A stretch of 24,000 nt of DNA, taken from the NCBI GenBank assembly GCA_031432155.1, contig JASJPP010000028.1:1-24000 (forward strand), in the 5' to 3' direction. This document shows, one piece after another, positions 9,765 through 22,726 of the stretch. Position 1 is the first letter of the stretch; each line of letters begins with the position of its first letter. Source of the stretch: Patescibacteria group bacterium. Lineage in GTDB: Bacteria > Patescibacteriota > Minisyncoccia > UBA6257 > UBA9933. Under the pieces are notes generated by a model, which saw only the letters and a program-made list of their open reading frames with translations, searched no databases and had not been told where the DNA came from. Position numbers and translations under genes: made by a program.

Positions 9765-10982
9765 ATGTTCAGATTTAAAATTAAAAATATCCATAAAAAA
9801 TCAAGAACCGGATTTTTTGACACGCCGCACGGAAAAATTAAAACGCCCAATATCGCCACCGTTGCCACGCACGGTAAAATAAAATTACTGACCAAAACCG
9901 ATCATTCGCGAGTCAATCCGGATTTAACGATTGCCAACACTTTTCATCTTTTCGTAAATAACAAAGTAAAAGAAATTAAAAAAGCCGGCGGGCTTCATAA
10001 ATGGTCCGGATTTAAAAAACCGATCATGACCGATTCGGGCGGATTTCAAGTTTTTAGTTTGGGTTGGGGGAGGGCGCATGGAACGGGAAAGGTCGGTAAA
10101 ATAGAAAATTTTTTTGAAGCGAGCCGGAAATTCGACGTTCAAAAATTTGCGAACAACAAAAATCCCGTTAAGATTTCCGAAAAAGGAGTTGTTTTTAATT
10201 ATGACAATAAAAAATACGATTTTATTCCGGAAAAATCAATAAAAATCCAGGAAGATTTGGGAGCTGATGTCATTTTCGCTTTTGACGAATGCACTTCGCC
10301 GCTTCATGACCATTTTTATACCAAAAAATCAATGGAACGGACTCATCGCTGGGCGGTTCGTTCATTGAACGCCCATAAAAAAAAGAATCAGGCGCTTTTT
10401 GGCATTGTTCAGGGAGGCGTTTTTGAAGATTTAAGAAAAAAATCTTCAAAATTTATCGGCGGCTTGCCTTTTGACGGATTTGGCATCGGCGGTTCATTCG
10501 GCGAAAAACAAATGAAAGACGTTTTAAGATGGTCATTGAGCGGTTTGCCGGAAGAAAAACCCCGCCATCTTTTGGGAATCGGAAAAATCAAAGATATTTT
10601 TATCGCCGTCAAAGAGGGAATTGATTTGTTTGACTGCGTTATCCCGACCCGCGAAGCTCGCCACGGAATTCTTTACGTTAAATCCGGCAAATTCGCGATT
10701 GAAAAGGGGATTTTCGCCGGCGACAAAAAATTGATTGACGGAAATTGCGGCTGTTTCGTTTGCCGCAACAAAATTACCCGCAAAGAGCTTCATTGCTATT
10801 TTAAGTCGGCGCGAAAAGCCGACAACAAAAAATTATCGACTTGCGATGTCGATAGATTGGTTTTGGGAAAACGTTTGGCTACCATTCATAATATCCATTT
10901 TTTTAAAAATCTTTTCGGGGAAATCCGCGAAGCGATTGCCGACGGAAAACTGGATAAACTGGAAAGGGAATATCTTTTTTGA
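9765..10982 (+). CDS. tgt: tRNA-guanine transglycosylase (queuine tRNA-ribosyltransferase)
   Basis: Motifs are TPHGKIKTPNIATVATHG, MTDSGGFQVFSL, FAFDECTS, GIVQGG, GFGIGGS, LLGIGK and a C-terminal CxCxxC zinc site (CGCFVC). Confidence 0.9.
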   Translation: MFRFKIKNIHKKSRTGFFDTPHGKIKTPNIATVATHGKIKLLTKTDHSRVNPDLTIANTFHLFVNNKVKEIKKAGGLHKWSGFKKPIMTDSGGFQVFSLGWGRAHGTGKVGKIENFFEASRKFDVQKFANNKNPVKISEKGVVFNYDNKKYDFIPEKSIKIQEDLGADVIFAFDECTSPLHDHFYTKKSMERTHRWAVRSLNAHKKKNQALFGIVQGGVFEDLRKKSSKFIGGLPFDGFGIGGSFGEKQMKDVLRWSLSGLPEEKPRHLLGIGKIKDIFIAVKEGIDLFDCVIPTREARHGILYVKSGKFAIEKGIFAGDKKLIDGNCGCFVCRNKITRKELHCYFKSARKADNKKLSTCDVDRLVLGKRLATIHNIHFFKNLFGEIREAIADGKLDKLEREYLF

Positions 10983-14247: not shown

Positions 14248-15996
14248 ATGGAAAATAAGGCGCTTTTACAAGAGCTCGTTAAAGGCGGATTTTTTAACGA
14301 TGAATCGTCGAGAAAAGTTCTTCAGGAAGCTTCGATCGCTCAGCGAAGCGTTGAGGACTTGATTTATGAAAGGCGCTTGGTTGACGAAGAAACGCTGGCT
14401 AACGTCAAAAGCCGGCTTTTAAATATTCCGTATAAAAAAATCAAAGCCGACGAAATTTCCGATGAACTGCTCAAAGCCGTTCCGGAAGAAACAGTCAGAA
14501 ATTACAAAGTGATTCCCATTGAGCGGTCCGACGATATGCTTGTCGTCGGCATGGTCAACCCCGACGATATCAGGGCGCGGGAAGCTTTGAAATTCGTCGC
14601 CAAACAGCTAAAGGCGAACGTCGGCGTTTATTTGATTGCGCCTTCGCTTTGGGAAGCGGTTTTAAGGCGTTATTCGCCGTACCGGAACGTAATCAACGAG
14701 GCCGTTCAATTATTGCATGTTCAAACCGGCAAAAGAGCGTTTGGCGCCGGTCAAATCATTCAACTGGAAGCGGGAGCGAACGTTTCCGAAGAAGCGCCGA
14801 TTATCAGGATTGTTGCTTCCACCTTAAAAGAAGCGGTTTGGCAGAAAGCGTCCGACATTCACATTGAGCCGCAGAGAAATCGTTTAAGAATCAGGTTTCG
14901 GGTTGACGGCGAACTTCAGGAAGTTTCTTCAATGCCTATAGAGCTTCATCAGCCGATTGTTTCCCGCGTGAAAGTTCTTTCTAATTTAAAAATTGACGAA
15001 ACAAGAATTCCGCAGGACGGCCGGTTCAGGACCGTTCTTTTCGGCCGAGATATTGATTATCGCGTGGCGACTTTTCCGACTCCGGTCGGAGAAAAAGCGG
15101 CTATCAGGGTTTTGGATCCTCTGGTCGGCTTAAAAGGCCTGGAAGAGCTTGGGTTGATGGGCAGAAATCTCAGGGTGATTAAAAACAGCATTGAAAAACC
15201 TTACGGAATGATTCTTATTACCGGGCCGACCGGTTCCGGGAAAACCACCACTTTATACGCCGTTATGCAGATTTTAAACCAGGAAGACGTCAATATCGTC
15301 AGCTTGGAAGATCCAGTTGAATATTTTATGGACGGGCTGAATCAGTCGCAGGTGAGGCCGGAAATCGGATATGATTTCGCTTCGGGCTTGCGCCAGATTC
15401 TTCGGCAGGACCCGGATATCATCATGGTCGGTGAAATCAGAGACAACGAAACAGCCGGCTTGGCGGTTCACGCCGCTCTTACCGGCCATATTGTTTTGTC
15501 CACGCTTCACACCAATAATTCCATCGGGGTTATTCCGCGGCTTATCGATATGAAAGTCGAGCCGTTTCTTTTGCCGGCTTCTTTGAATTTGATGCTGGCT
15601 CAAAGATTGGTTTCTAGGCTTTGTTCGGAATGCCGGCAATCAAAAACCGCGTCGCCTGAAATTGAAGCAATCATTAAAAAAGAATTGGCGAAAATGTCCA
15701 AAGAAAATTTAAAAGAATCGGAGATTAAGAATCTTGACGGGCCGTACGAAATTTTTCATTCAGTCGGTTGTAAAAGCTGTAAAAATAAAGGAGTGGTGGG
15801 CCGCCTCGCCTTGTTTGAAATTTTTGAAATGACGACGGAGCTGGAAAGGATTATTTCCGAAGGGCCGACCGAACATAAAATTTTAGAAGAGGCGAACCGG
15901 CAGGGAATGATTACCTTGCGTCAGGACGGCGTTTTAAAATCTTTAAAAGGATTGGTTTCCGTTGAAGAAGTATTGAAAGAAACAATGGAAGTATGA
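14248..15996 (+). CDS. pilB: Type IV pilus extension ATPase (GspE/PilB family)
   Basis: An N-terminal GSPII-type domain is present. Walker A is GPTGSGKTTT. Also present are the Asp box, Walker B (DPDIIMVGEIRD), the His box (TGHIVLSTLHTN) and a tetracysteine motif (CSEC...CKSC). Confidence 0.92.
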   Translation: MENKALLQELVKGGFFNDESSRKVLQEASIAQRSVEDLIYERRLVDEETLANVKSRLLNIPYKKIKADEISDELLKAVPEETVRNYKVIPIERSDDMLVVGMVNPDDIRAREALKFVAKQLKANVGVYLIAPSLWEAVLRRYSPYRNVINEAVQLLHVQTGKRAFGAGQIIQLEAGANVSEEAPIIRIVASTLKEAVWQKASDIHIEPQRNRLRIRFRVDGELQEVSSMPIELHQPIVSRVKVLSNLKIDETRIPQDGRFRTVLFGRDIDYRVATFPTPVGEKAAIRVLDPLVGLKGLEELGLMGRNLRVIKNSIEKPYGMILITGPTGSGKTTTLYAVMQILNQEDVNIVSLEDPVEYFMDGLNQSQVRPEIGYDFASGLRQILRQDPDIIMVGEIRDNETAGLAVHAALTGHIVLSTLHTNNSIGVIPRLIDMKVEPFLLPASLNLMLAQRLVSRLCSECRQSKTASPEIEAIIKKELAKMSKENLKESEIKNLDGPYEIFHSVGCKSCKNKGVVGRLALFEIFEMTTELERIISEGPTEHKILEEANRQGMITLRQDGVLKSLKGLVSVEEVLKETMEV

Positions 15997-16011
15997 TAAA
16001 ATTTTCATAAT

Positions 16012-17085
16012 ATGATTAATTACAAACAAAAGCTTGAAGAATTGATGCTGGCAACGGCCCAGCAAAACGCTTCCGATCTTCATTTGGCGGTGGGTCGTTA
16101 TCCGACCTTAAGAATTGACGGCGCTCTGATTCCGCTTAATAAAGAGCAGATATTAACGCCGGAAACCGCGCGCAATTTAATAATGGAATTGCTGACCCCG
16201 GCGCAAAAAGAGATTTTTTTGGCCGAAAAAGAAATCGACTTTTCTTACAGTTTAGGGGAAAAAGCCCGGTTTCGGGTCAATATTTTCCAGCAAAAAGGTT
16301 ATGTGGCGGCGGCTCTGCGTTCCATTCACGCCAAGGTAAAAACAATGGAAGAATTGAATTTGCCGCCGATTCTCCATGATTTTGCCAGGCTTTCGCAGGG
16401 ATTTATTTTGATAGTGGGGCCGGCCGGTCATGGCAAGTCAACGACTTTGGCGGCTATCTTGGACGAAGTTAATCGTAAACGGACGGAACACATCATTACC
16501 ATAGAAGACCCGGTTGAATATATTTTTACTCAGGACAAATCAATCGTTTCCCAGCGGGAGGTAAAAAGCGACACCGTTGATTTTCATAACGCTTTGCGTT
16601 CGCTTTTGCGTCAGGATCCGGACGTCGTTATGATCGGCGAGATGCGCGACATCGAATCAATGGCAACGGCGATGACGGCGGCTGAAACCGGCCATTTGGT
16701 TTTTTCCACTCTTCATACCAATTCGGCGGCTCAGACCATTGACAGGATCATTGACAGTTTTCCGGCGGAACAGCAAGGGCAGATTTCTTCCCAATTGGCC
16801 GCCACATTGGTCGCCATTATTTCCGAGCGCTTGATTCCGAGAATAGACGGCGGCCGCGTGCCGGCTTGCGAGATAATGCTTTCCAACGCGGCCGTCCGCA
16901 ATCTTATCAGGGAGAGAAAAAGCTATCAGATTGATTTGGTGATTGAAACCAATTTTCAGGACGGAATGATGACGCTCAACCGCGCTTTGATCGATTTGGC
17001 CAGAAGAGGCGAAATTTCCATGGAAAACGCCGAAATGTATTCTCTGAATCCGGGCGAACTGAGGATATTGCTGGAAAAATCATAA
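16012..17085 (+). CDS. pilT: Type IV pilus retraction ATPase (twitching motility protein)
   Basis: ASDLHL is present. Walker A is GPAGHGKSTT. Also present are DPDVVMIGEMRD and TGHLVFSTLHTN. The ~357 aa length is typical of PilT. Confidence 0.92.
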   Translation: MINYKQKLEELMLATAQQNASDLHLAVGRYPTLRIDGALIPLNKEQILTPETARNLIMELLTPAQKEIFLAEKEIDFSYSLGEKARFRVNIFQQKGYVAAALRSIHAKVKTMEELNLPPILHDFARLSQGFILIVGPAGHGKSTTLAAILDEVNRKRTEHIITIEDPVEYIFTQDKSIVSQREVKSDTVDFHNALRSLLRQDPDVVMIGEMRDIESMATAMTAAETGHLVFSTLHTNSAAQTIDRIIDSFPAEQQGQISSQLAATLVAIISERLIPRIDGGRVPACEIMLSNAAVRNLIRERKSYQIDLVIETNFQDGMMTLNRALIDLARRGEISMENAEMYSLNPGELRILLEKS

Positions 17086-17089
17086 TTCA

Positions 17090-18298
17090 ATGAAGTTTAA
17101 ATACAACGCCAGAACCCAAGAAGGCGAATTGCAAATCGGTTTCGTGGAATCGGTCAACCGCGAGGCGGCTGTCAACGTTTTGACCGGCCACAATCTTTTT
17201 ATTCTTTCTTTGAGCGAAGCGGAAAAAGCCGGCTGGGGAGACAAAATTTTCAGTCTTTTCAACAAAGTAAAAATGGTTGATTTAATGATTTTTACCCGCC
17301 AGTTCGCGACTCTTCTGGAATCCAAGGTGCCGCTGGGGGATTGTTTGCGCGCTCTTCGCAAACAAACCAGAAACCCGATTTTAAAAGAAATCGTTTTTGA
17401 AATTTCCAACGACGTTGACGCCGGTTTATCTTTGTCCCAGGCGCTGGAACGCCACGGCAACGTTTTTTCGGAATTTTACATCAGCTTGATTCGGTCGTCT
17501 GAAATCACCGGACGGCTGGAGGAAGCCATGGTTTTTTTGGCCGATTATATTGATAAAGAATTGATGTGGCGGACGCGCATCAGAAACGCCATGATTTACC
17601 CGAGTATTTTAATCGGTTTGTTCGTTATTGTGGCCGGGTTGATGATCGTGATTGTTTTTCCCCAGATCGCCCCGATTTTTAAGGAAGCCAAAGTTGAATT
17701 GCCTTTTATCACCAGAATTCTTCTGGCTGGCGGCGAGTTCGTCGGCCGGTGGTGGTGGGCCATCATAACGGTTATTTTTCTTTTTATCGTTCTTTTGGTT
17801 GATTATTTCCGGAGCAAAGAGGGAAAAATAGTGTTTGACGAAATTTCGATTAAGCTTCCGATTCTGGGCAATCTTTTCAAGAAAGTTTATATTGCGAGAT
17901 TCGCCGAATCAATAAGCGTTTTGATAAAAGGCGGCATTCCGATTACCCAGTCAATTGAAATCACGGCCCATTCCGTCGGCAGTATCGTGTATCGCGACGT
18001 TCTTCACGATTGCGCCGAACGGGTGAAAGCCGGCGAAACTTTTTCGTCAATCATAGAAAAAGAAGAGGGTCTTTTCCCTCCCTTGGTAAGTCAGATGATA
18101 GCGATTGGCGAAGGAACCGGGCGTTTGGACGAAATCCTGTCGCGAATTTCAATTTTATACACCCGCGAAGTTAATGATTTGCTTGCCAATCTGACGGAGC
18201 TTATCCAGCCCTTGCTTATCGCCTTGATCGGCGTTTTCGTCGGTTTGCTGTTTGCTTCAATTTTAATTCCGATATATAATTTAGTACAAGCATTTTAA
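17090..18298 (+). CDS. pilC: Type IV pilus platform protein (GspF/PilC family)
   Basis: It has two GspF-type repeats with three TM segments, and motifs such as FTRQFATLLESKVPL and MIAIGEGTGRLDE. Confidence 0.9.
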   Translation: MKFKYNARTQEGELQIGFVESVNREAAVNVLTGHNLFILSLSEAEKAGWGDKIFSLFNKVKMVDLMIFTRQFATLLESKVPLGDCLRALRKQTRNPILKEIVFEISNDVDAGLSLSQALERHGNVFSEFYISLIRSSEITGRLEEAMVFLADYIDKELMWRTRIRNAMIYPSILIGLFVIVAGLMIVIVFPQIAPIFKEAKVELPFITRILLAGGEFVGRWWWAIITVIFLFIVLLVDYFRSKEGKIVFDEISIKLPILGNLFKKVYIARFAESISVLIKGGIPITQSIEITAHSVGSIVYRDVLHDCAERVKAGETFSSIIEKEEGLFPPLVSQMIAIGEGTGRLDEILSRISILYTREVNDLLANLTELIQPLLIALIGVFVGLLFASILIPIYNLVQAF

Positions 18299-18331: not shown

Positions 18332-18826
18332 ATGAAAAAAGGTTTTACGTTAATTGAAATATTGATCGTGGTTGCCATTATCGCAATTTTGGCTTCAATC
18401 GTATTGGTCGGTTTGACGGGCGCGAGAGCCAAGGCCCGCGACGCCAAAAGAATTTCCGACGTTACTTCGGTTCAAAACGTTTTGGAGCTTTATTACACGC
18501 GTTGCGGTTTTTATCCGGGGCAGGTGAACTGCGGTGAAGCCGCTAATCCGGCCAACTGGGTTGATTTGTCGGCTGCCTTAACCGGCAGCGGTTTGGGGGT
18601 TACGGGAATTCCCGAGGAACAAATTACCGGCCACCAGGATTATAGTTATTCGGTTGACACTAACGCGTCAACCAACAGACAGGGATATGTGTTAAGCGTT
18701 CAATTGGAAGGCGATAATCAGGTTTTGAGAAATCCCGAAGAAGTTGACGCTTCTTCTTTTCCGGCCGGTTTCACTCCGGTTTTAAGCTGTGATGACGCGG
18801 CTTTCAATTATTGCGTCAGGTATTAA
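18332..18826 (+). CDS. Type IV pilin (likely major pilin)
   Basis: The class III signal is MKKGFTLIEILIVVAIIAILASIVL (G|FTLIE with Glu5). The C-terminal Cys pair (SCDDAAFNYC) forms a D-region-like disulfide. Confidence 0.85.
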   Translation: MKKGFTLIEILIVVAIIAILASIVLVGLTGARAKARDAKRISDVTSVQNVLELYYTRCGFYPGQVNCGEAANPANWVDLSAALTGSGLGVTGIPEEQITGHQDYSYSVDTNASTNRQGYVLSVQLEGDNQVLRNPEEVDASSFPAGFTPVLSCDDAAFNYCVRY

Positions 18827-18835
18827 TTTTAGGTT

Positions 18836-19777
18836 ATGACGTTTTTTACTTGCGCCGTTTTATTTGTTTTCGGTTTGGCGGTCGGAAGTTTTTTGAACGT
18901 CATCGGTCTTCGTTATCAGGAAAGGGAGCGGTTATTATCCGAGAAAACAACGGGTGGCCGCTCCTTTTGCGTTTTCTGCCGCCGGCAATTGAGGTGGTTT
19001 GAATTGATTCCGCTTTTAAGTTTTTTGATTCAACGCGGAAAATGCAACGGTTGCGGCAAAAAAATTTCCCGGCAATATCCGTTTGTTGAATTGTTGAGCG
19101 GACTGATTTTTGTTTTCGTCCCTTATTATTTAATTAATTTTCAATTTTCAATTTATAATTTTCAGTCAATTTTTCAATTTTTTAATTATCAATTATTAAT
19201 TATTGCTGTCTGGATTTTAATTTTCTTGCTCCTTCTTTTGCTTTCAATAATTGATTTCCGGCTTTTCATTATTCCTGATTCCATAAATTTAGCTTTGGCG
19301 ATTTTGGGATTTGCCTTAATCCTATTTTCAATATTTTTGACGTCCGACGTCCAAAGATTAAATAATTTTTCTTTTTTAGGGCATTACGCTTTATTGTTTG
19401 ATTTTAATTTTCTTAATAACTCAATAAGTAATAACTTAATAACCATAGCCGTCAATCGTTTGTTCGCCGCTTTCGTCGGTACGGCGTTTTTCGGAGCGAT
19501 TATTCTTTTGAGCCGCGGCCGGGCGATGGGAATGGGGGATTTTAAGCTGATCGCCGGCCTGGGTTTGATTTTCGGCTGGCCGGATATTCTGATGATCGCC
19601 GCTTTTTCTTTTATCATCGGCGCGGTTTTCAGCGTTCCTTTTCTGATAAAAGGCGTCAAAACCATGAAAGACGCGGTTCCTTTCGGGCCTTTTATCGTCA
19701 GCGGAGCGGTCTTGAATTTTTTCTTTGGTTATCAAATTATAGAGAGTTATTTCAAATTGTTCGGGGCAGTTTATTAA
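18836..19777 (+). CDS. pilD: Prepilin peptidase / N-methyltransferase (A24 family)
   Basis: The N-terminal Cys motifs are CVFCRRQL...CNGCGKKIS. YPFVELL and the catalytic-region GMGDFKL are present, and the protein is polytopic. Confidence 0.88.
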   Translation: MTFFTCAVLFVFGLAVGSFLNVIGLRYQERERLLSEKTTGGRSFCVFCRRQLRWFELIPLLSFLIQRGKCNGCGKKISRQYPFVELLSGLIFVFVPYYLINFQFSIYNFQSIFQFFNYQLLIIAVWILIFLLLLLLSIIDFRLFIIPDSINLALAILGFALILFSIFLTSDVQRLNNFSFLGHYALLFDFNFLNNSISNNLITIAVNRLFAAFVGTAFFGAIILLSRGRAMGMGDFKLIAGLGLIFGWPDILMIAAFSFIIGAVFSVPFLIKGVKTMKDAVPFGPFIVSGAVLNFFFGYQIIESYFKLFGAVY

Positions 19778-19899: not shown

Positions 19900-20517
19900 A
19901 TGAACAAAGGATTTACCATTATTGAATTATTGGTGATAATCGCGATTTTAATGACGATGACGGGTTTTTTGGTTATTTATAATCGCGCCGGCGAAAGACA
20001 AATAATTATTTTTCAGGAACAGGCGAAGGTGATTAACGCCATCAGCCGGGCAAGATCGTTGAGTGTCGCCACCTTCGGCAAGGCGAGCGCGCCTTGCGGT
20101 TACGGCGTTCATTTTGACGCGCCGCGGACAGTTACTATTTTCAAGGATTTGGCGGCTGATTGCGGAAGCGCCGACAAAAAATATACACCTTCCAATCCTG
20201 AAGAAAAAGTTGAACAATTTTATCTGGATTCAAAAGTTTCGCTTGACTTGGGCTTGACCGATGTTTTGTTTATTCCTCCGGATCCGATAGTAATAATCAC
20301 CCCCAATCCGGAAGCGGCGGTTTTAAACATTAAAGAAGAAGGCGGAACAGGCATGGCTTCGATTAAAATCAACAAATCGGGCCATATCGGCACAGAGCCT
20401 GAAACTGTTTATAATCCGGTTGGCGAGGGCGGTAAAGGCGGTTACGAAGAAGAAGGCGGTAAAGGCGGTCATGAAGAAGAAGAAGGAGGAATGATGCCAA
20501 CGCCGTATGCTCAATAA
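19900..20517 (+). CDS. Minor pilin-like protein (GspH/FimT-like N-terminus) with acidic Gly/Glu repeat tail
   Basis: The prepilin signal is MNKGFTIIELLVIIAIL. The C-terminus reads GEGGKGGYEEEGGKGGHEEEEGG. Confidence 0.7.
   Translation: MNKGFTIIELLVIIAILMTMTGFLVIYNRAGERQIIIFQEQAKVINAISRARSLSVATFGKASAPCGYGVHFDAPRTVTIFKDLAADCGSADKKYTPSNPEEKVEQFYLDSKVSLDLGLTDVLFIPPDPIVIITPNPEAAVLNIKEEGGTGMASIKINKSGHIGTEPETVYNPVGEGGKGGYEEEGGKGGHEEEEGGMMPTPYAQ
20428..20481 (+). repeat. Tandem 27-bp direct repeat (2 copies, two mismatches in the TAC/CAT codon)
   Basis: GGCGGTAAAGGCGGTTACGAAGAAGAA is followed by GGCGGTAAAGGCGGTCATGAAGAAGAA. It is in frame and encodes GGKGG(Y/H)EEE. Confidence 0.8.
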
Positions 20518-20541: not shown

Positions 20542-22146
20542 ATGCGCGAAAAAACACATTCCCGCAAAGGATATCTTTTTATTGAGGCGATGGTCGCCAT
20601 CAGTATTATTATTCTCGGAATTTTGGGAATGGTTGTTCTTCTTTCGCGTTCGTTGAGCATTAATCGGGTGATAAGCGATCAGTTTGACGCTTCTTATCTG
20701 GCCAGTGAAGGCATTGAGGTTGTCAAAAACATCATTGATGCCAACGTCATTCAGGGAAGGCCGTGGAACGACGGCCTTGGCAACGGCGATTTTGAAATCG
20801 TTTATAACAGTTTGATCATGGAACCGGATTCCAATCGTTATCTTTTGTTTGATTCCGGCACCGGCCGTTTCAATTATCAGACCGGCTCCTTAACGTTTTT
20901 TGTCAGAACGGTTTCTTTGGAGCAGATTGACGATGATTGCGTTCCCGGAGCGGAAAGAATAAGAGTTAATTCTTTGGTTGAGTGGAGAACCCGCGGCGGC
21001 GGAGATTTTAAAATTGATCTGGAAGATAATTTTTTTGATTGGCGGAGCGGCGGCGCGGTTGTTTGTGGCGCCGGTCCGGGGCCTGGTCCCGGCCCGGTTT
21101 CCAATTGTATCGGCAGCGGCGCGGTTAATCACGCCGGCGCCGATTGGACGCCGAATTCCGGCGATTTTATCTGCGGTCTTCACACAAACATTAATAATTT
21201 CAGAATTAACGGCGGCGATACGGTTTACGTTACTCCTTATGACGGCGTTAATTCAAATTATGGATTTTTGGAAGTTCAGGCGAATAATAACGCGCAAATT
21301 TTGGGGACTTTAACGGCTTCCGGCGCAGGATATGGAGGAGGAGGGGGAGGAGGGGGAGGGGGAGCAAACTCTAGCGTAGGAGGAACTGGGGGATCCGGAG
21401 TTTCCGGAGGTGCAACGGGAAATGCGGGTGGAACTAGCAGCGGCGATCCCGGCGCGTCTGGCGGTTCGGGCGGCGGCGGAGGTGGATCTTATGGCGGCGG
21501 AAGCGGATTTGCCGGAGGACCAGGAAATCCCGGCGCAAATGGCAGCGCAGGCGGTATGGGCGGTTACGCGATTGTGGGCGGTAATGGCGATTCTTCAACT
21601 AACGAATTTCTCAATATCGGCTCTGGCGGAGGCGGCGGAGGAGGCGGCGGCGGCGGAAACGCAAGTTGGCCTTATGGCGGATCCGGCGCCGGAGGTGGCG
21701 GAGGCGGCAATCGCGGCGGCGGTCAAATTATGCTTCGCGCTACTGCCTTGTTAATTATTTCTGGAATCGTAAATACAACGGGAGAATTTGCTGCTACCGG
21801 AAATGGTGGCGGAGGAGATTGGGTTTCAGGATCCGGCGGCGGAGGCGGTTCCGCAAGCGGTGTTGGGGCATCAAATGGCGGTGCCGGAGGAGTAAATGGA
21901 TTTACCGCGGCCACCGACGGCGGAAACGGCGGTTCTGGCGCCGCCGGCGCCGGCGGCGGCGTATTGTTAAAAGGCAATCAAGTAAATATTGCCGGCGGAT
22001 CGACGATTGACGCCCGGGGCGGCGGAGGTCTTTCCGCTAACGGCGGAACCCTGAAAATTTTTTCCGATAATTTGATCAACAACGGTTCCGTTTTGAGCGG
22101 CGCGCTTTGCGCCGGCCCTTATTCCGGGCCGTGCGTGTATCAATAA
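20542..22146 (+). CDS. Pilin-like protein (PilV/GspI-like N-terminus) fused to a ~350-aa glycine-rich, beta-helix-like C-terminal domain
   Basis: The prepilin-like signal is KG|YLFIEAMVAISIIILGILGMVVLL, with Glu at +5. The C-terminal region has runs of 9-13 Gly, GGxGG repeats and an ending ..VNIAGGSTIDARGGGGLSANGGTLKIFSDNLINNGSV. Local GC is clearly higher than the surroundings. Confidence 0.7.
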   Translation: MREKTHSRKGYLFIEAMVAISIIILGILGMVVLLSRSLSINRVISDQFDASYLASEGIEVVKNIIDANVIQGRPWNDGLGNGDFEIVYNSLIMEPDSNRYLLFDSGTGRFNYQTGSLTFFVRTVSLEQIDDDCVPGAERIRVNSLVEWRTRGGGDFKIDLEDNFFDWRSGGAVVCGAGPGPGPGPVSNCIGSGAVNHAGADWTPNSGDFICGLHTNINNFRINGGDTVYVTPYDGVNSNYGFLEVQANNNAQILGTLTASGAGYGGGGGGGGGGANSSVGGTGGSGVSGGATGNAGGTSSGDPGASGGSGGGGGGSYGGGSGFAGGPGNPGANGSAGGMGGYAIVGGNGDSSTNEFLNIGSGGGGGGGGGGGNASWPYGGSGAGGGGGGNRGGGQIMLRATALLIISGIVNTTGEFAATGNGGGGDWVSGSGGGGGSASGVGASNGGAGGVNGFTAATDGGNGGSGAAGAGGGVLLKGNQVNIAGGSTIDARGGGGLSANGGTLKIFSDNLINNGSVLSGALCAGPYSGPCVYQ

Positions 22147-22150
22147 TAAA

Positions 22151-22726
22151 ATGCTTATTAATTTTAAATCAAAAAACGGATACACATTGGTTGAGTTGCT
22201 GGTGGCAATGGCTTTGTTTTTGATCGTTCTTTCAATCATTTCCGGGCTTTTCATAAAATCGATGAATAACCAGCGCGCGGCCGTCAATCTGCTGGAAGTC
22301 AACGACAGCGTCAGTTTTTCCATAGAGCAGATGGCGAGAGAAATCAGAACCGGATATTATTTTTGCACAAACGATTATCCGATTTCTTTTCCGCCTTATC
22401 CGGGATATCCGGACTGCGGATTACTGGGAGACGACGAACTTCAATTCGTCAACGCTTTCAATCAGGTTGTCTGGTATCGCTTGAATAACGAAGCGATTGA
22501 AAGGGGAATTGAAGACCCTTCCACATTAATAAGAACTTACACGTCGATAACCACAACCAACGTCAAAGTGAAACGTTTTAACGTCGAGCTTATCGGCAAT
22601 AATCTTAATGACGGTTATCCGCCGAGAATTATTATAAGTTTGGCCATTGCCGCCACCGAGAAAAATCTGGAAAATTTCGTCACAAACATTCAAACGACAA
22701 TCAGCGCCCGGCTTTTGGACAGCTGA
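22151..22726 (+). CDS. Minor pilin-like protein (PilW/GspJ-like)
   Basis: The prepilin signal is NGYTLVELLVAMALFLIVLSIISGLF, followed by the ..SIEQMAREIRTGY motif typical of PilW/GspJ-type pseudopilins. Confidence 0.7.
   Translation: MLINFKSKNGYTLVELLVAMALFLIVLSIISGLFIKSMNNQRAAVNLLEVNDSVSFSIEQMAREIRTGYYFCTNDYPISFPPYPGYPDCGLLGDDELQFVNAFNQVVWYRLNNEAIERGIEDPSTLIRTYTSITTTNVKVKRFNVELIGNNLNDGYPPRIIISLAIAATEKNLENFVTNIQTTISARLLDS

Follow-up and report, generated by a model that had tools for sequence, protein, structure and literature searches.

Why would a minor pilin carry several hundred residues of glycine-rich sequence at its C-terminus? The question is raised by a gene at 20542..22146 (+) in a 24,000-nucleotide stretch of DNA, here called the window, from a Patescibacteria group bacterium (assembly GCA_031432155.1, contig JASJPP010000028.1, positions 1 to 24,000). 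Read from the sequence alone, the gene had been singled out as a candidate pilus-tip adhesin: a prepilin-type N-terminus and a small pilin-like part, followed by a PGRS-like glycine tract that ends with beta-helix-like periodicity. This original prediction regarded the glycine-rich part as a natural host-contact module in an episymbiotic cell resembling those of the Candidate Phyla Radiation (CPR), and proposed structure prediction, a profile search with the C-terminal domain and a comparison of strains as checks. All three were carried out, and their results are given below.

The product of the gene is probably a type IV minor pilin of modular build, with an exchangeable ligand-binding module that serves in the recognition of a host surface. 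The evidence comes from relatives that have the pilin without the module, from other proteins that have the module with or without a pilin, and from near-identical strains in which the core of the module differs.

A conserved minor pilin with a grafted domain

The N-terminus of the protein, MREKTHSRKG|YLFIE, has the features of a class III signal: a 10-residue basic leader with a terminal glycine (Gly10), a glutamate (Glu15) at position +5 of the predicted mature protein, and a stretch of 24 hydrophobic residues (aa 11-34). The prepilin-type N-terminus with Glu5 and a hydrophobic helix can thus be read directly from the sequence, as had been claimed. G10, L12 and E15 are invariant in an alignment (A1) of the protein with its relatives. 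Glycine accounts for 146 of the 534 residues (27%), with 10% in the non-repetitive aa 11-177, 35.5% in the C-terminal domain (aa 186-534) and 45% in aa 271-463. The glycine-rich part had been put at about 350 aa and measures 349 aa after a GPGPGPGP linker; its longest glycine runs are of 10 (aa 265-274) and 11 (aa 362-372) residues, so the range of 9-13 given for them was slightly off, and the other runs are of 6, 6, 5, 4 and 4. The cysteines of the domain are Cys189, Cys211, Cys523 and Cys531. A DNA-binding role of the kind known from competence pilins is unlikely at a pI of 4.4, with 6 Lys and Arg against 13 Asp and Glu.

The search for orthologs covered 40 genomes from related genera within the family and order. 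A protein that matches about aa 3-175 only, in open frames of 157-226 aa, is encoded in at least 32 of these genomes, and a few further relatives match the N-terminal helix only. The gene order PilD (the prepilin peptidase), GspH-like pilin, ortholog, downstream pilin is found in 9 of the 11 relatives' loci examined, the other two being incomplete, and the nine ordered loci have no room for the C-terminal domain. Short orthologs and conserved synteny together imply that the module is a genus-level graft. The pilin part therefore appears to be an old, conserved minor pilin and the C-terminal domain a recent addition, and the large foreign module that the original prediction saw on a minor pilin is what the orthologs in most of these relatives lack.

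The fused architecture is found in the window's own lineage only, in the proteins P0001 to P0004. P0002 is the same allele as the window protein, P0001 is 100% identical to it over aa 1-262, and P0003 and P0004, which come from other samples, are 87-88% identical. Modular pilins are defined by a pilin module, a short linker and a module that is not specific to pili (PMC8179133), and the protein has all three: among 177 proteins that bear the domain, 167 have it without any pilin signal.

An unannotated family of glycine-rich domains

With aa 186-534 as the query, HMMER was run over all 1.84 billion cluster representatives and returned 337 proteins at E <= 1e-3, 170 of them at E <= 1e-10, most of which align across nearly the whole query. 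The sources include Woesearchaeota, Nomurabacteria, Patescibacteria, Peribacteraceae, Deltaproteobacteria and unclassified archaea, and the source names read "hypothetical protein" throughout. Within the class of the window's organism the domain is rare and patchy, occurring in 2 of 301 sampled genomes, that of the window (G000) included.

The order of motifs is fixed across 121 aligned domain segments. A first block, (D/N)HxGADW ... HTNIGxF.V..G.TV.V.PYDG ... G.LEI.A...I.I.GTLDA.GAGYGGGGGGGG, leads into a glycine-rich stretch; the second is GGYA...NGD.STDES..MGSGGGGGGGG; the third, GGGGGGAG..GGG.I.L.A...L.I.G.I.A.G, again leads into a glycine-rich stretch; and the last is GG.GAGGGILL ... TID.RGG ... 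NGGT.KIF. Few positions other than glycine are nearly invariant: the Tyr of GGYA, the Asp of NGDxS, the Ser of GSGGG, the Asn and Lys of NGGTxKIF and the His of (D/N)H. Since the same domain with the same motif order recurs in hundreds of proteins, its glycine-rich composition is not a matter of chance.

AlphaFold2 models the domain alone, from a 38-row alignment, with a mean predicted local distance difference test (pLDDT) score of 93.1 and a predicted template modelling score of 0.91. Short strand triplets lie at domain residues 57-73, 210-226, 289-306 and 318-340, and about two thirds of the residues are confidently placed yet belong to no DSSP class. The full-length model gives the same picture of the C-terminal domain, with triplets at aa 242-258, 395-411 and 474-525, in keeping with the beta-helix-like periodicity noted earlier at the C-terminus. 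The models fit a short beta-solenoid in which ordered excursions, rich in glycine, come between one rung and the next; polyglycine-II packing is a tempting guess. As modelled, the C-terminal part is a compact, conserved, folded domain and not loose low-complexity sequence. The PGRS-like glycine tract of the original prediction thus gives way to a confidently modelled domain with no detectable relation to PE_PGRS proteins.

Does this fold have a known relative? Pfam, NCBIfam and PHROG searches gave no match to the C-terminal domain, and searches of the Protein Data Bank (PDB) by sequence and by family profile returned only spurious short glycine matches. With both models, Foldseek found no PDB match below E 0.79 and a template modelling (TM) score of at most 0.28. 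Two Foldseek matches below 1e-3 in BFVD reflect composition only (TM <= 0.22, root-mean-square deviation > 18 A). Rows short of significance come largely from beta-helical adhesins and polyglycine proteins, among them HMW1, Ag43, a tapirin, the gp38 receptor-binding domain (RBD), the glycine-rich domain (GRD) of ALK and the Bxb1 tail tip; they are a hint at most. A relation to Gly_rich_2 (PF21722), tested through a neighbouring protein, received an hhalign probability of 9.6%. Literature searches found no description of the glycine-rich domain, and a whole-protein scan of genome contigs found no close relatives.

Pilins, surface proteins and phage tail fibres

The features that accompany the domain within proteins are all extracellular: signal peptides, FN3, PKD, IPT/TIG, Laminin_G_3, subtilase, Cys-rich repeats and sorting tails of the type IX secretion system. 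Pilin signals occur in 10 of the 177 domain-bearing proteins, in the window clade, P0030/G328, P0071 and the archaeal P0033, P0090 and P0163. G328 and P0030 combine an N_methyl motif, TIG and the domain, and share with the window protein the C-terminal tail L-C-x-G-x-Y-S-G-x-C, while P0071 is a GspG-like pilin with the domain. The archaeal P0163 and P0090 match PF04021 (Class_IIIsignal) with 24.5 bits, above the cut-off, and 21.2 bits, just below it, and the P0034/P0163 locus is flanked by archaeal housekeeping genes. The pilin-fused state changes 6 times on the best domain tree, and well-supported branches require at least two of these changes.

The sister of the window clade (support 98 in the Shimodaira-Hasegawa-like approximate likelihood ratio test) is an unfused protein of 588 aa in a relative (G021), consisting of a plain hydrophobic N-terminus with no pilin signal, the domain and FN3. 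Its gene sits in a second pilus cluster, in the order PilB, PilC, two N_methyl pilins, the homolog, a small hydrophobic protein and PilM/N.

Phage loci provide another setting. P0017 (on contig L032) has as neighbours tail-fibre-like proteins, a BW3TFN baseplate-wedge tail-fibre-network protein, a 1639-aa DUF4815 protein and an Amidase_2 endolysin. On the IMG/VR contig L033 (3534-7185) a 395-aa member directly follows a 680-aa tail-fibre-like protein, which carries a repeated "ASGDLSGTYPxP...L.G" unit.

Stand-alone members also occur directly upstream of rpoB in other Patescibacteria/Peribacteraceae (L029:7001-8392, L030:7001-8320 and L035:263-1558). In L029 and L030, where upstream sequence exists, the genes 5' of the member encode a conserved protein of about 400 aa with no assigned function, together with a 380-aa Gly_rich_2/tail-fibre-PHROG-like protein in L029 and a 627-aa uncharacterised protein in L030. 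The archaeal member P0008, on a Woesearchaeota contig, is directly followed by a 1101-aa Laminin_G_3/Big_9 protein (L031:8360-11665), a pair that resembles a surface-protein operon.

Replacement of the domain core between near-identical strains

Comparison with a Hainich groundwater contig (L001), which encodes P0001 and shares DNA with the window from position 10523 on, revealed a sharply bounded difference. Upstream, as far as 21356 (10.8 kb), and downstream, from 21928 onward (2.1 kb), the two sequences share 98.8% identity, and within the gene the flanks are almost free of mismatches. Between them, at 21352-21930, lies a cassette of 579 nt in the window and 610 nt in L001, with about 50% nucleotide identity and several indels. 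The left junction falls in the GGA/GGG tract for Gly265-274 and the right junction in a GGC-rich tract (G-x-G-A-A-G-A-G-G-G). The proposed strain comparison thus uncovered a cassette of about 50% identity within DNA of about 99% identity.

Which of the two cores is ancestral? P0003 and P0004 share the P0001-type core at the divergence expected from the flanks (82-85%), and the alignment of L001 with L005 is continuous at 82%; vertical inheritance can therefore be assigned to the P0001 type. The core of the window type shares 47% identity with the P0001 type and 46-50% with unrelated members of the family. In a tree of the cassette columns the window protein leaves its clade and has P0019, P0008 and P0030 as its nearest rows, whereas a tree of the flank columns places it, at 99% identity to P0001, within a clade of support 100. 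Gradual divergence of the cassette was rejected on these grounds, the sister allele being about as distant as unrelated members and the two trees disagreeing.

Relative to the P0001 type, the window-type core is without all eight cysteines, is 13 residues shorter and is richer in glycine. It is in frame and retains every family motif in order. Within the cassette, 60 of 94 glycine columns (64%) are identical as compared with 37 of 92 non-glycine columns (40%), with 27 gap columns, and the glycine codon usage and third-position GC content (GC3) of the window-type core resemble those of host genes. No second copy of the cassette was found in the 99.9%-complete genome, where only GGN tracts of up to 33 nt match, and no close relative of the window-type core among 5.8 billion protein clusters. 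Three assembled contigs carry the window-type allele: the window, L003 (98.6% identical) and L004 (99.7%). Their cores differ by one single-nucleotide polymorphism (SNP) and their flanks by 0.3-1.4%.

In our reading, the core of the domain was probably exchanged by homologous replacement, the incoming allele stemming from a donor outside the sampled set. Wholesale exchange between near-identical strains would be as expected of a host-recognition module.

A model for pilus-borne recognition and its alternatives

The architecture of the protein, the graft, the domain family with its contexts and the cassette replacement are the observations on which a model can build. The class III signal, and a PilD gene within the operon, lead us to infer a modular type IV minor pilin. 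The comparative evidence, namely orthologs without the module, independent pilin fusions of bacteria and archaea, the copy in the pilus cluster of G021, the phage contexts and the cassette swap, favours a role in surface recognition. That much of the proposed host-contact module has gained ground; processing by PilD, location at the tip, binding and ligand, and thus adhesion itself, are what we infer beyond it.

The steps of pilus assembly can be drawn from type IV filament biology (PMC8179133, PMC9934059, PMC10191384). PilD would remove the leader by a cut behind Gly10. Through its hydrophobic helix, with Glu5, the subunit would then enter the complex of minor pilins that primes assembly, alongside the GspH-like pilin and the downstream one, and this complex comes to lie at the distal tip of the pilus. 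A module of this bulk should sterically fit only at the tip or in flexible lateral display. The flexible (GP)4 linker, around which aa 166-183 have pLDDT < 50 in the full-length model, would uncouple the 31-kDa module from the pilin. Rungs and conserved glycine motifs may form a compact scaffold, with the variable non-glycine segments between them as the exposed surface, and the module would act as the ligand-binding head of the pilus by binding a surface component of a host cell or another substrate. Exchange of the glycine-rich core by recombination within GGN tracts could then change the binding surface or specificity in one step, by a logic of cassette exchange like that described for phage gp38 adhesins, which serves here as an analogy only. 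A bolder extension, which we offer tentatively and with more doubt than conviction, is that the domain is an unrecognised, horizontally shuffled receptor-recognition fold of phage tail fibres and of type IV pilus tips in bacterial and archaeal episymbionts of ultra-small size (CPR bacteria and DPANN archaea), whose GGN-encoded glycine motifs act as recombination sites that re-target host specificity, a gp38-like switch used by cells.

Several observations weigh against a pilus-borne recognition module. The protein matches no Pfam family at E <= 1, and thus not N_methyl (PF07963), and TIGR02532 is not among its NCBIfam matches; the lone match there is to TIGR02523 (PilV), at E 0.002 and 18.6 bits, below the cut-off of 52.2. 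In the full-length AlphaFold2 model the pilin head (a helix at residues 10-71 and four strands) has a pLDDT of 33-59. The assignment of the protein as GspI/PilV agrees with the position of its gene and faces the same sub-threshold profile match and the same low scores of the head model. Most members of the family have no link to pili, and several CPR copies of the domain adjoin rpoB, so that the tie of the domain to pili is recurrent, not obligatory. An enzyme or a metal-binding protein might likewise show the conserved D/N-H, Y, D, S, N and K residues.

Could the pilin-like N-terminus be a membrane anchor only, an uncleaved or pseudopilin stub that holds the domain, perhaps still binding, on the cell surface rather than on a pilus? 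The failure of the protein against the N_methyl and TIGR02532 models would suit such an anchor, as would the plain N-terminus of its closest homolog, in G021, and the ordinary signal peptides of most family members. Yet G10 and E15 are invariant, and in the loci studied in relatives a short ortholog persists between two minor pilins, right behind PilD, which is hard to explain for a mere anchor; we consider this alternative unlikely. The nearly invariant non-glycine positions would also agree with a pilus-delivered enzyme or metal-dependent effector, acting for example on host envelope polymers, in place of a passive adhesin. Many beta-helical proteins are glycan lyases or hydrolases, and a putative pectinase is one of the non-significant Foldseek rows. 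But no likeness of the domain to catalytic families was found in Pfam, NCBIfam or the PDB, the window protein has Asn in place of the first Asp of the "DH" motif, and a core that is replaced as a whole is what one would sooner expect of a binding surface than of an active site; an effector of this kind seems distinctly unlikely.

The cassette itself invites two further explanations. Both junctions lie in GGN-rich tracts, and all three window-type contigs may share one study and pipeline, so the divergent cassette, or the whole glycine region, could be a chimera of metagenome assembly across low-complexity sequence. This is very improbable: the window-type allele stands on three contigs with different flanks and a cassette that is the same but for one SNP, the cassette is in frame with all family-conserved motifs in order, no possible donor gene with a close cassette exists among the 5.8 billion clusters, glycine codon usage and GC3 are host-like, and the fusion also occurs in the P0001, P0003 and P0004 lineages from other samples. 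Diversity-generating retroelements (DGRs) are frequent in CPR genomes, and sharply bounded variation would be in keeping with a DGR or with gene conversion from silent cassettes, as in Neisseria pilE/pilS. Here the changes are indels and about 50% substitutions that are not confined to adenines, and the cassette is stable across three contigs; with no further copy of the cassette in the genome, both forms of dedicated diversification are rejected, and we give them next to no credence. A modular minor pilin with an exchangeable recognition module is the account we prefer.

The pilus operon and its surroundings

The gene lies in a type IV pilus operon that is complete, prepilin peptidase included (Table 1), in the order comFC-side, PilM, PilN, PilO-like, PilB, PilT, PilC, pilin, PilD, minor pilin, target, minor pilin, gyrB. 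There are 24 nt between the upstream pilin and the gene and 4 nt between its stop codon and the next pilin. The neighbours had been called GspH- and GspJ-like: both do look like minor pilins and the upstream one is weakly GspH-like, while profile searches do not bear out the GspJ label, since gspJ matches the downstream pilin at E 0.26 and ComGE, ComGF and GspI are better weak matches.

Table 1. Features of the gene and of the surrounding pilus operon in the window
Feature	Position	Strand	Remarks
PilB, PilT, PilC (assembly and retraction ATPases, platform protein)	14248..18298	+	T2SSE and T2SSF matches; L001 gene table
Putative major pilin	18332..18826	+	PF07963 E 7e-8, TIGR02532 E 5e-9
Prepilin peptidase PilD	18836..19777	+	PF06750 E 3e-26, PF01478 E 2e-9
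Upstream minor pilin, weakly GspH-like, with acidic Gly/Glu repeat tail	19900..20517	+	TIGR01708 E 2.8e-5 (below cut-off), N_methyl E 9e-4; synteny conserved
Whole gene, probable modular minor pilin	20542..22146	+	534 aa, stop codon included; open reading frame
Prepilin leader peptide	20542..20571	+	aa 1-10, Gly10 last; predicted PilD cleavage site, read from sequence
Pilin module	20572..21072	+	aa 11-177; hydrophobic alpha-1N helix with Glu +5, long helix, four-stranded sheet, Cys133 and Cys175
GPGPGPGP linker, (GP)4	21073..21096	+	aa 178-185, read from sequence
C-terminal glycine-rich domain	21097..22143	+	aa 186-534; 349 aa, about 31 kDa, pI 4.4
GGA/GGG tract for Gly265-274	21334..21363	+	left cassette junction inside
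Exchangeable cassette	21352..21930	+	aa 271-463; both Gly-rich excursions and the middle rung
GGC/GGA array for Gly362-372	21625..21657	+	family-conserved "MGSGGGGGGGG" motif
GGC/GCC-rich tract, G-x-G-A-A-G-A-G-G-G motif	21925..21961	+	right cassette junction inside
Downstream minor pilin, N_methyl motif	22151..22726	+	PF07963 E 1.4e-7, TIGR02532 E 4.6e-6; synteny conserved

The tail of the upstream GspH-like pilin also differs among strains, in a 27-bp Gly/Glu repeat at window positions 20428-20482. It reads GGKGGYEEE-GGKGGHEEE in the window and in L004, has one unit in L001 (196 vs 205 aa), is rearranged to GGKGGKGGYEKEEGGYEKEE in L003 and is replaced by an unrelated Lys/Glu tail in L005. 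Contigs L003 and L004 both start at window position 20225, just 5' of this repeat.

The genome, that of a CPR bacterium, is 653 kb in size and encodes four PilB-like ATPases and PilT. At least two more pilus-like clusters, on contigs C4 (L036) and C17 (L037), contain other large proteins with pilin signals: one of 593 aa (N_methyl and CarboxypepD_reg), one of 364 aa, and one of 750 aa with FN3 and an N_methyl motif that is oddly internal (residues 555-580). In relatives, a small four-helix-bundle open reading frame of the 23S rRNA intervening-sequence protein type (PF05635; L018:7538-7927 in G021) lies within pilus genes or immediately 5' of them, and the gene call fuses an open reading frame of this type to the orthologous minor pilin in P0006 and P0007.

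Significance

Host recognition by CPR bacteria and DPANN archaea is poorly understood, and type IV pili are the best-supported candidates for it. Modular pilins, and modular minor pilins in CPR bacteria, are already known. What is new is a module family that is unannotated and confidently modelled, with no solved or named relative, and that has been placed on pilins repeatedly, in CPR bacteria and DPANN-type archaea, and occurs in phage tail-fibre contexts as well; new, too, is the replacement of its core at the level of strains. The family has links to phage receptor-binding gene clusters. Two near-isogenic alleles, the window type and the P0001 type, that differ only in the domain core are an almost ideal starting point for tests of specificity. 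Since current annotation calls its members "hypothetical protein" throughout, the family deserves a Pfam/InterPro domain model.

Comparison with known systems

In its GGxGG-rich composition the domain recalls PE_PGRS proteins, Gly_rich (PF12810, ALK-type) and Gly_rich_2 (PF21722). Membership in PE_PGRS was rejected, as the protein has no PE domain or other Pfam match and its N-terminus is that of a pilin; so were the two Gly_rich families, with no hidden Markov model match at E <= 1 and with the ALK GRD entry (7lrz) at E 6.5 and TM 0.10. Predicted stacks of short beta-strands in an adhesin-like context are shared with the HMW1/TpsA secretion domains, Ag43 and the Caldicellulosiruptor tapirins. 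Unlike in HMW1, Ag43 and the tapirins, the rungs of the domain lie 60-130 aa of glycine-rich excursion apart, and Foldseek found no canonical right-handed beta-helix at E <= 0.001 (best match 2odl, E 2.6, TM 0.28; tapirin 6n2b, E 3.3, TM 0.13).

Closer in logic is the phage adhesin gp38 of the T2/S16 type. As far as the account in PMC12032242 (citing Dunne 2018) goes, its glycine-rich motifs are a scaffold and proposed recombination hotspots, while variable segments determine the choice of receptor. Both proteins have, behind an attachment part, strands of a beta-helix and a core rich in glycine. In both, conserved glycine motifs alternate with variable segments, and in the window protein the cassette junctions lie in GGN tracts; the likeness is an analogy only, since the domain has no PHROG match and Foldseek against the gp38 RBD (9v85) gave E 5.8 and TM 0.07. 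Members of the family do occur in phage tail-fibre loci, as gp38 does. Unlike gp38 as described there, the domain is larger (349 aa), and a whole core of 193 aa is exchanged instead of short hypervariable segments.

For modular pilins as adhesins there is published precedent (PMC8179133, PMC9934059). The Streptococcus sanguinis PilB, with a vWA module, and PilC, with an Ig and a ConA-like lectin module, are modular type IV pilins built, like the window protein, from a small pilin, a short linker and a bulky C-terminal module that also exists outside pili. Their genes likewise lie beside I-like and other minor pilins, with presentation at the tip predicted, and the envelope is of monoderm type with pilus machinery that has no secretin. 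The differences concern the module: in the window protein it is an unnamed glycine-rich domain with no InterPro/Pfam signature or solved structure, its binding is proposed only, and its core is swapped between strains.

Closest in lineage are PilX1 and PilX2 of the CPR bacterium Nanosynbacter lyticus TM7x, also minor pilins with C-terminal accessory domains. Their modules are lectin-like or beta-propellers, unlike the glycine-rich domain, and the carrier in the window is instead a pilin in the PilV/GspI position. PilX2, with its C-terminal module, is needed for efficient host binding (PMC11623550), so that the concept of a minor pilin with a recognition module has experimental precedent in this phylum.

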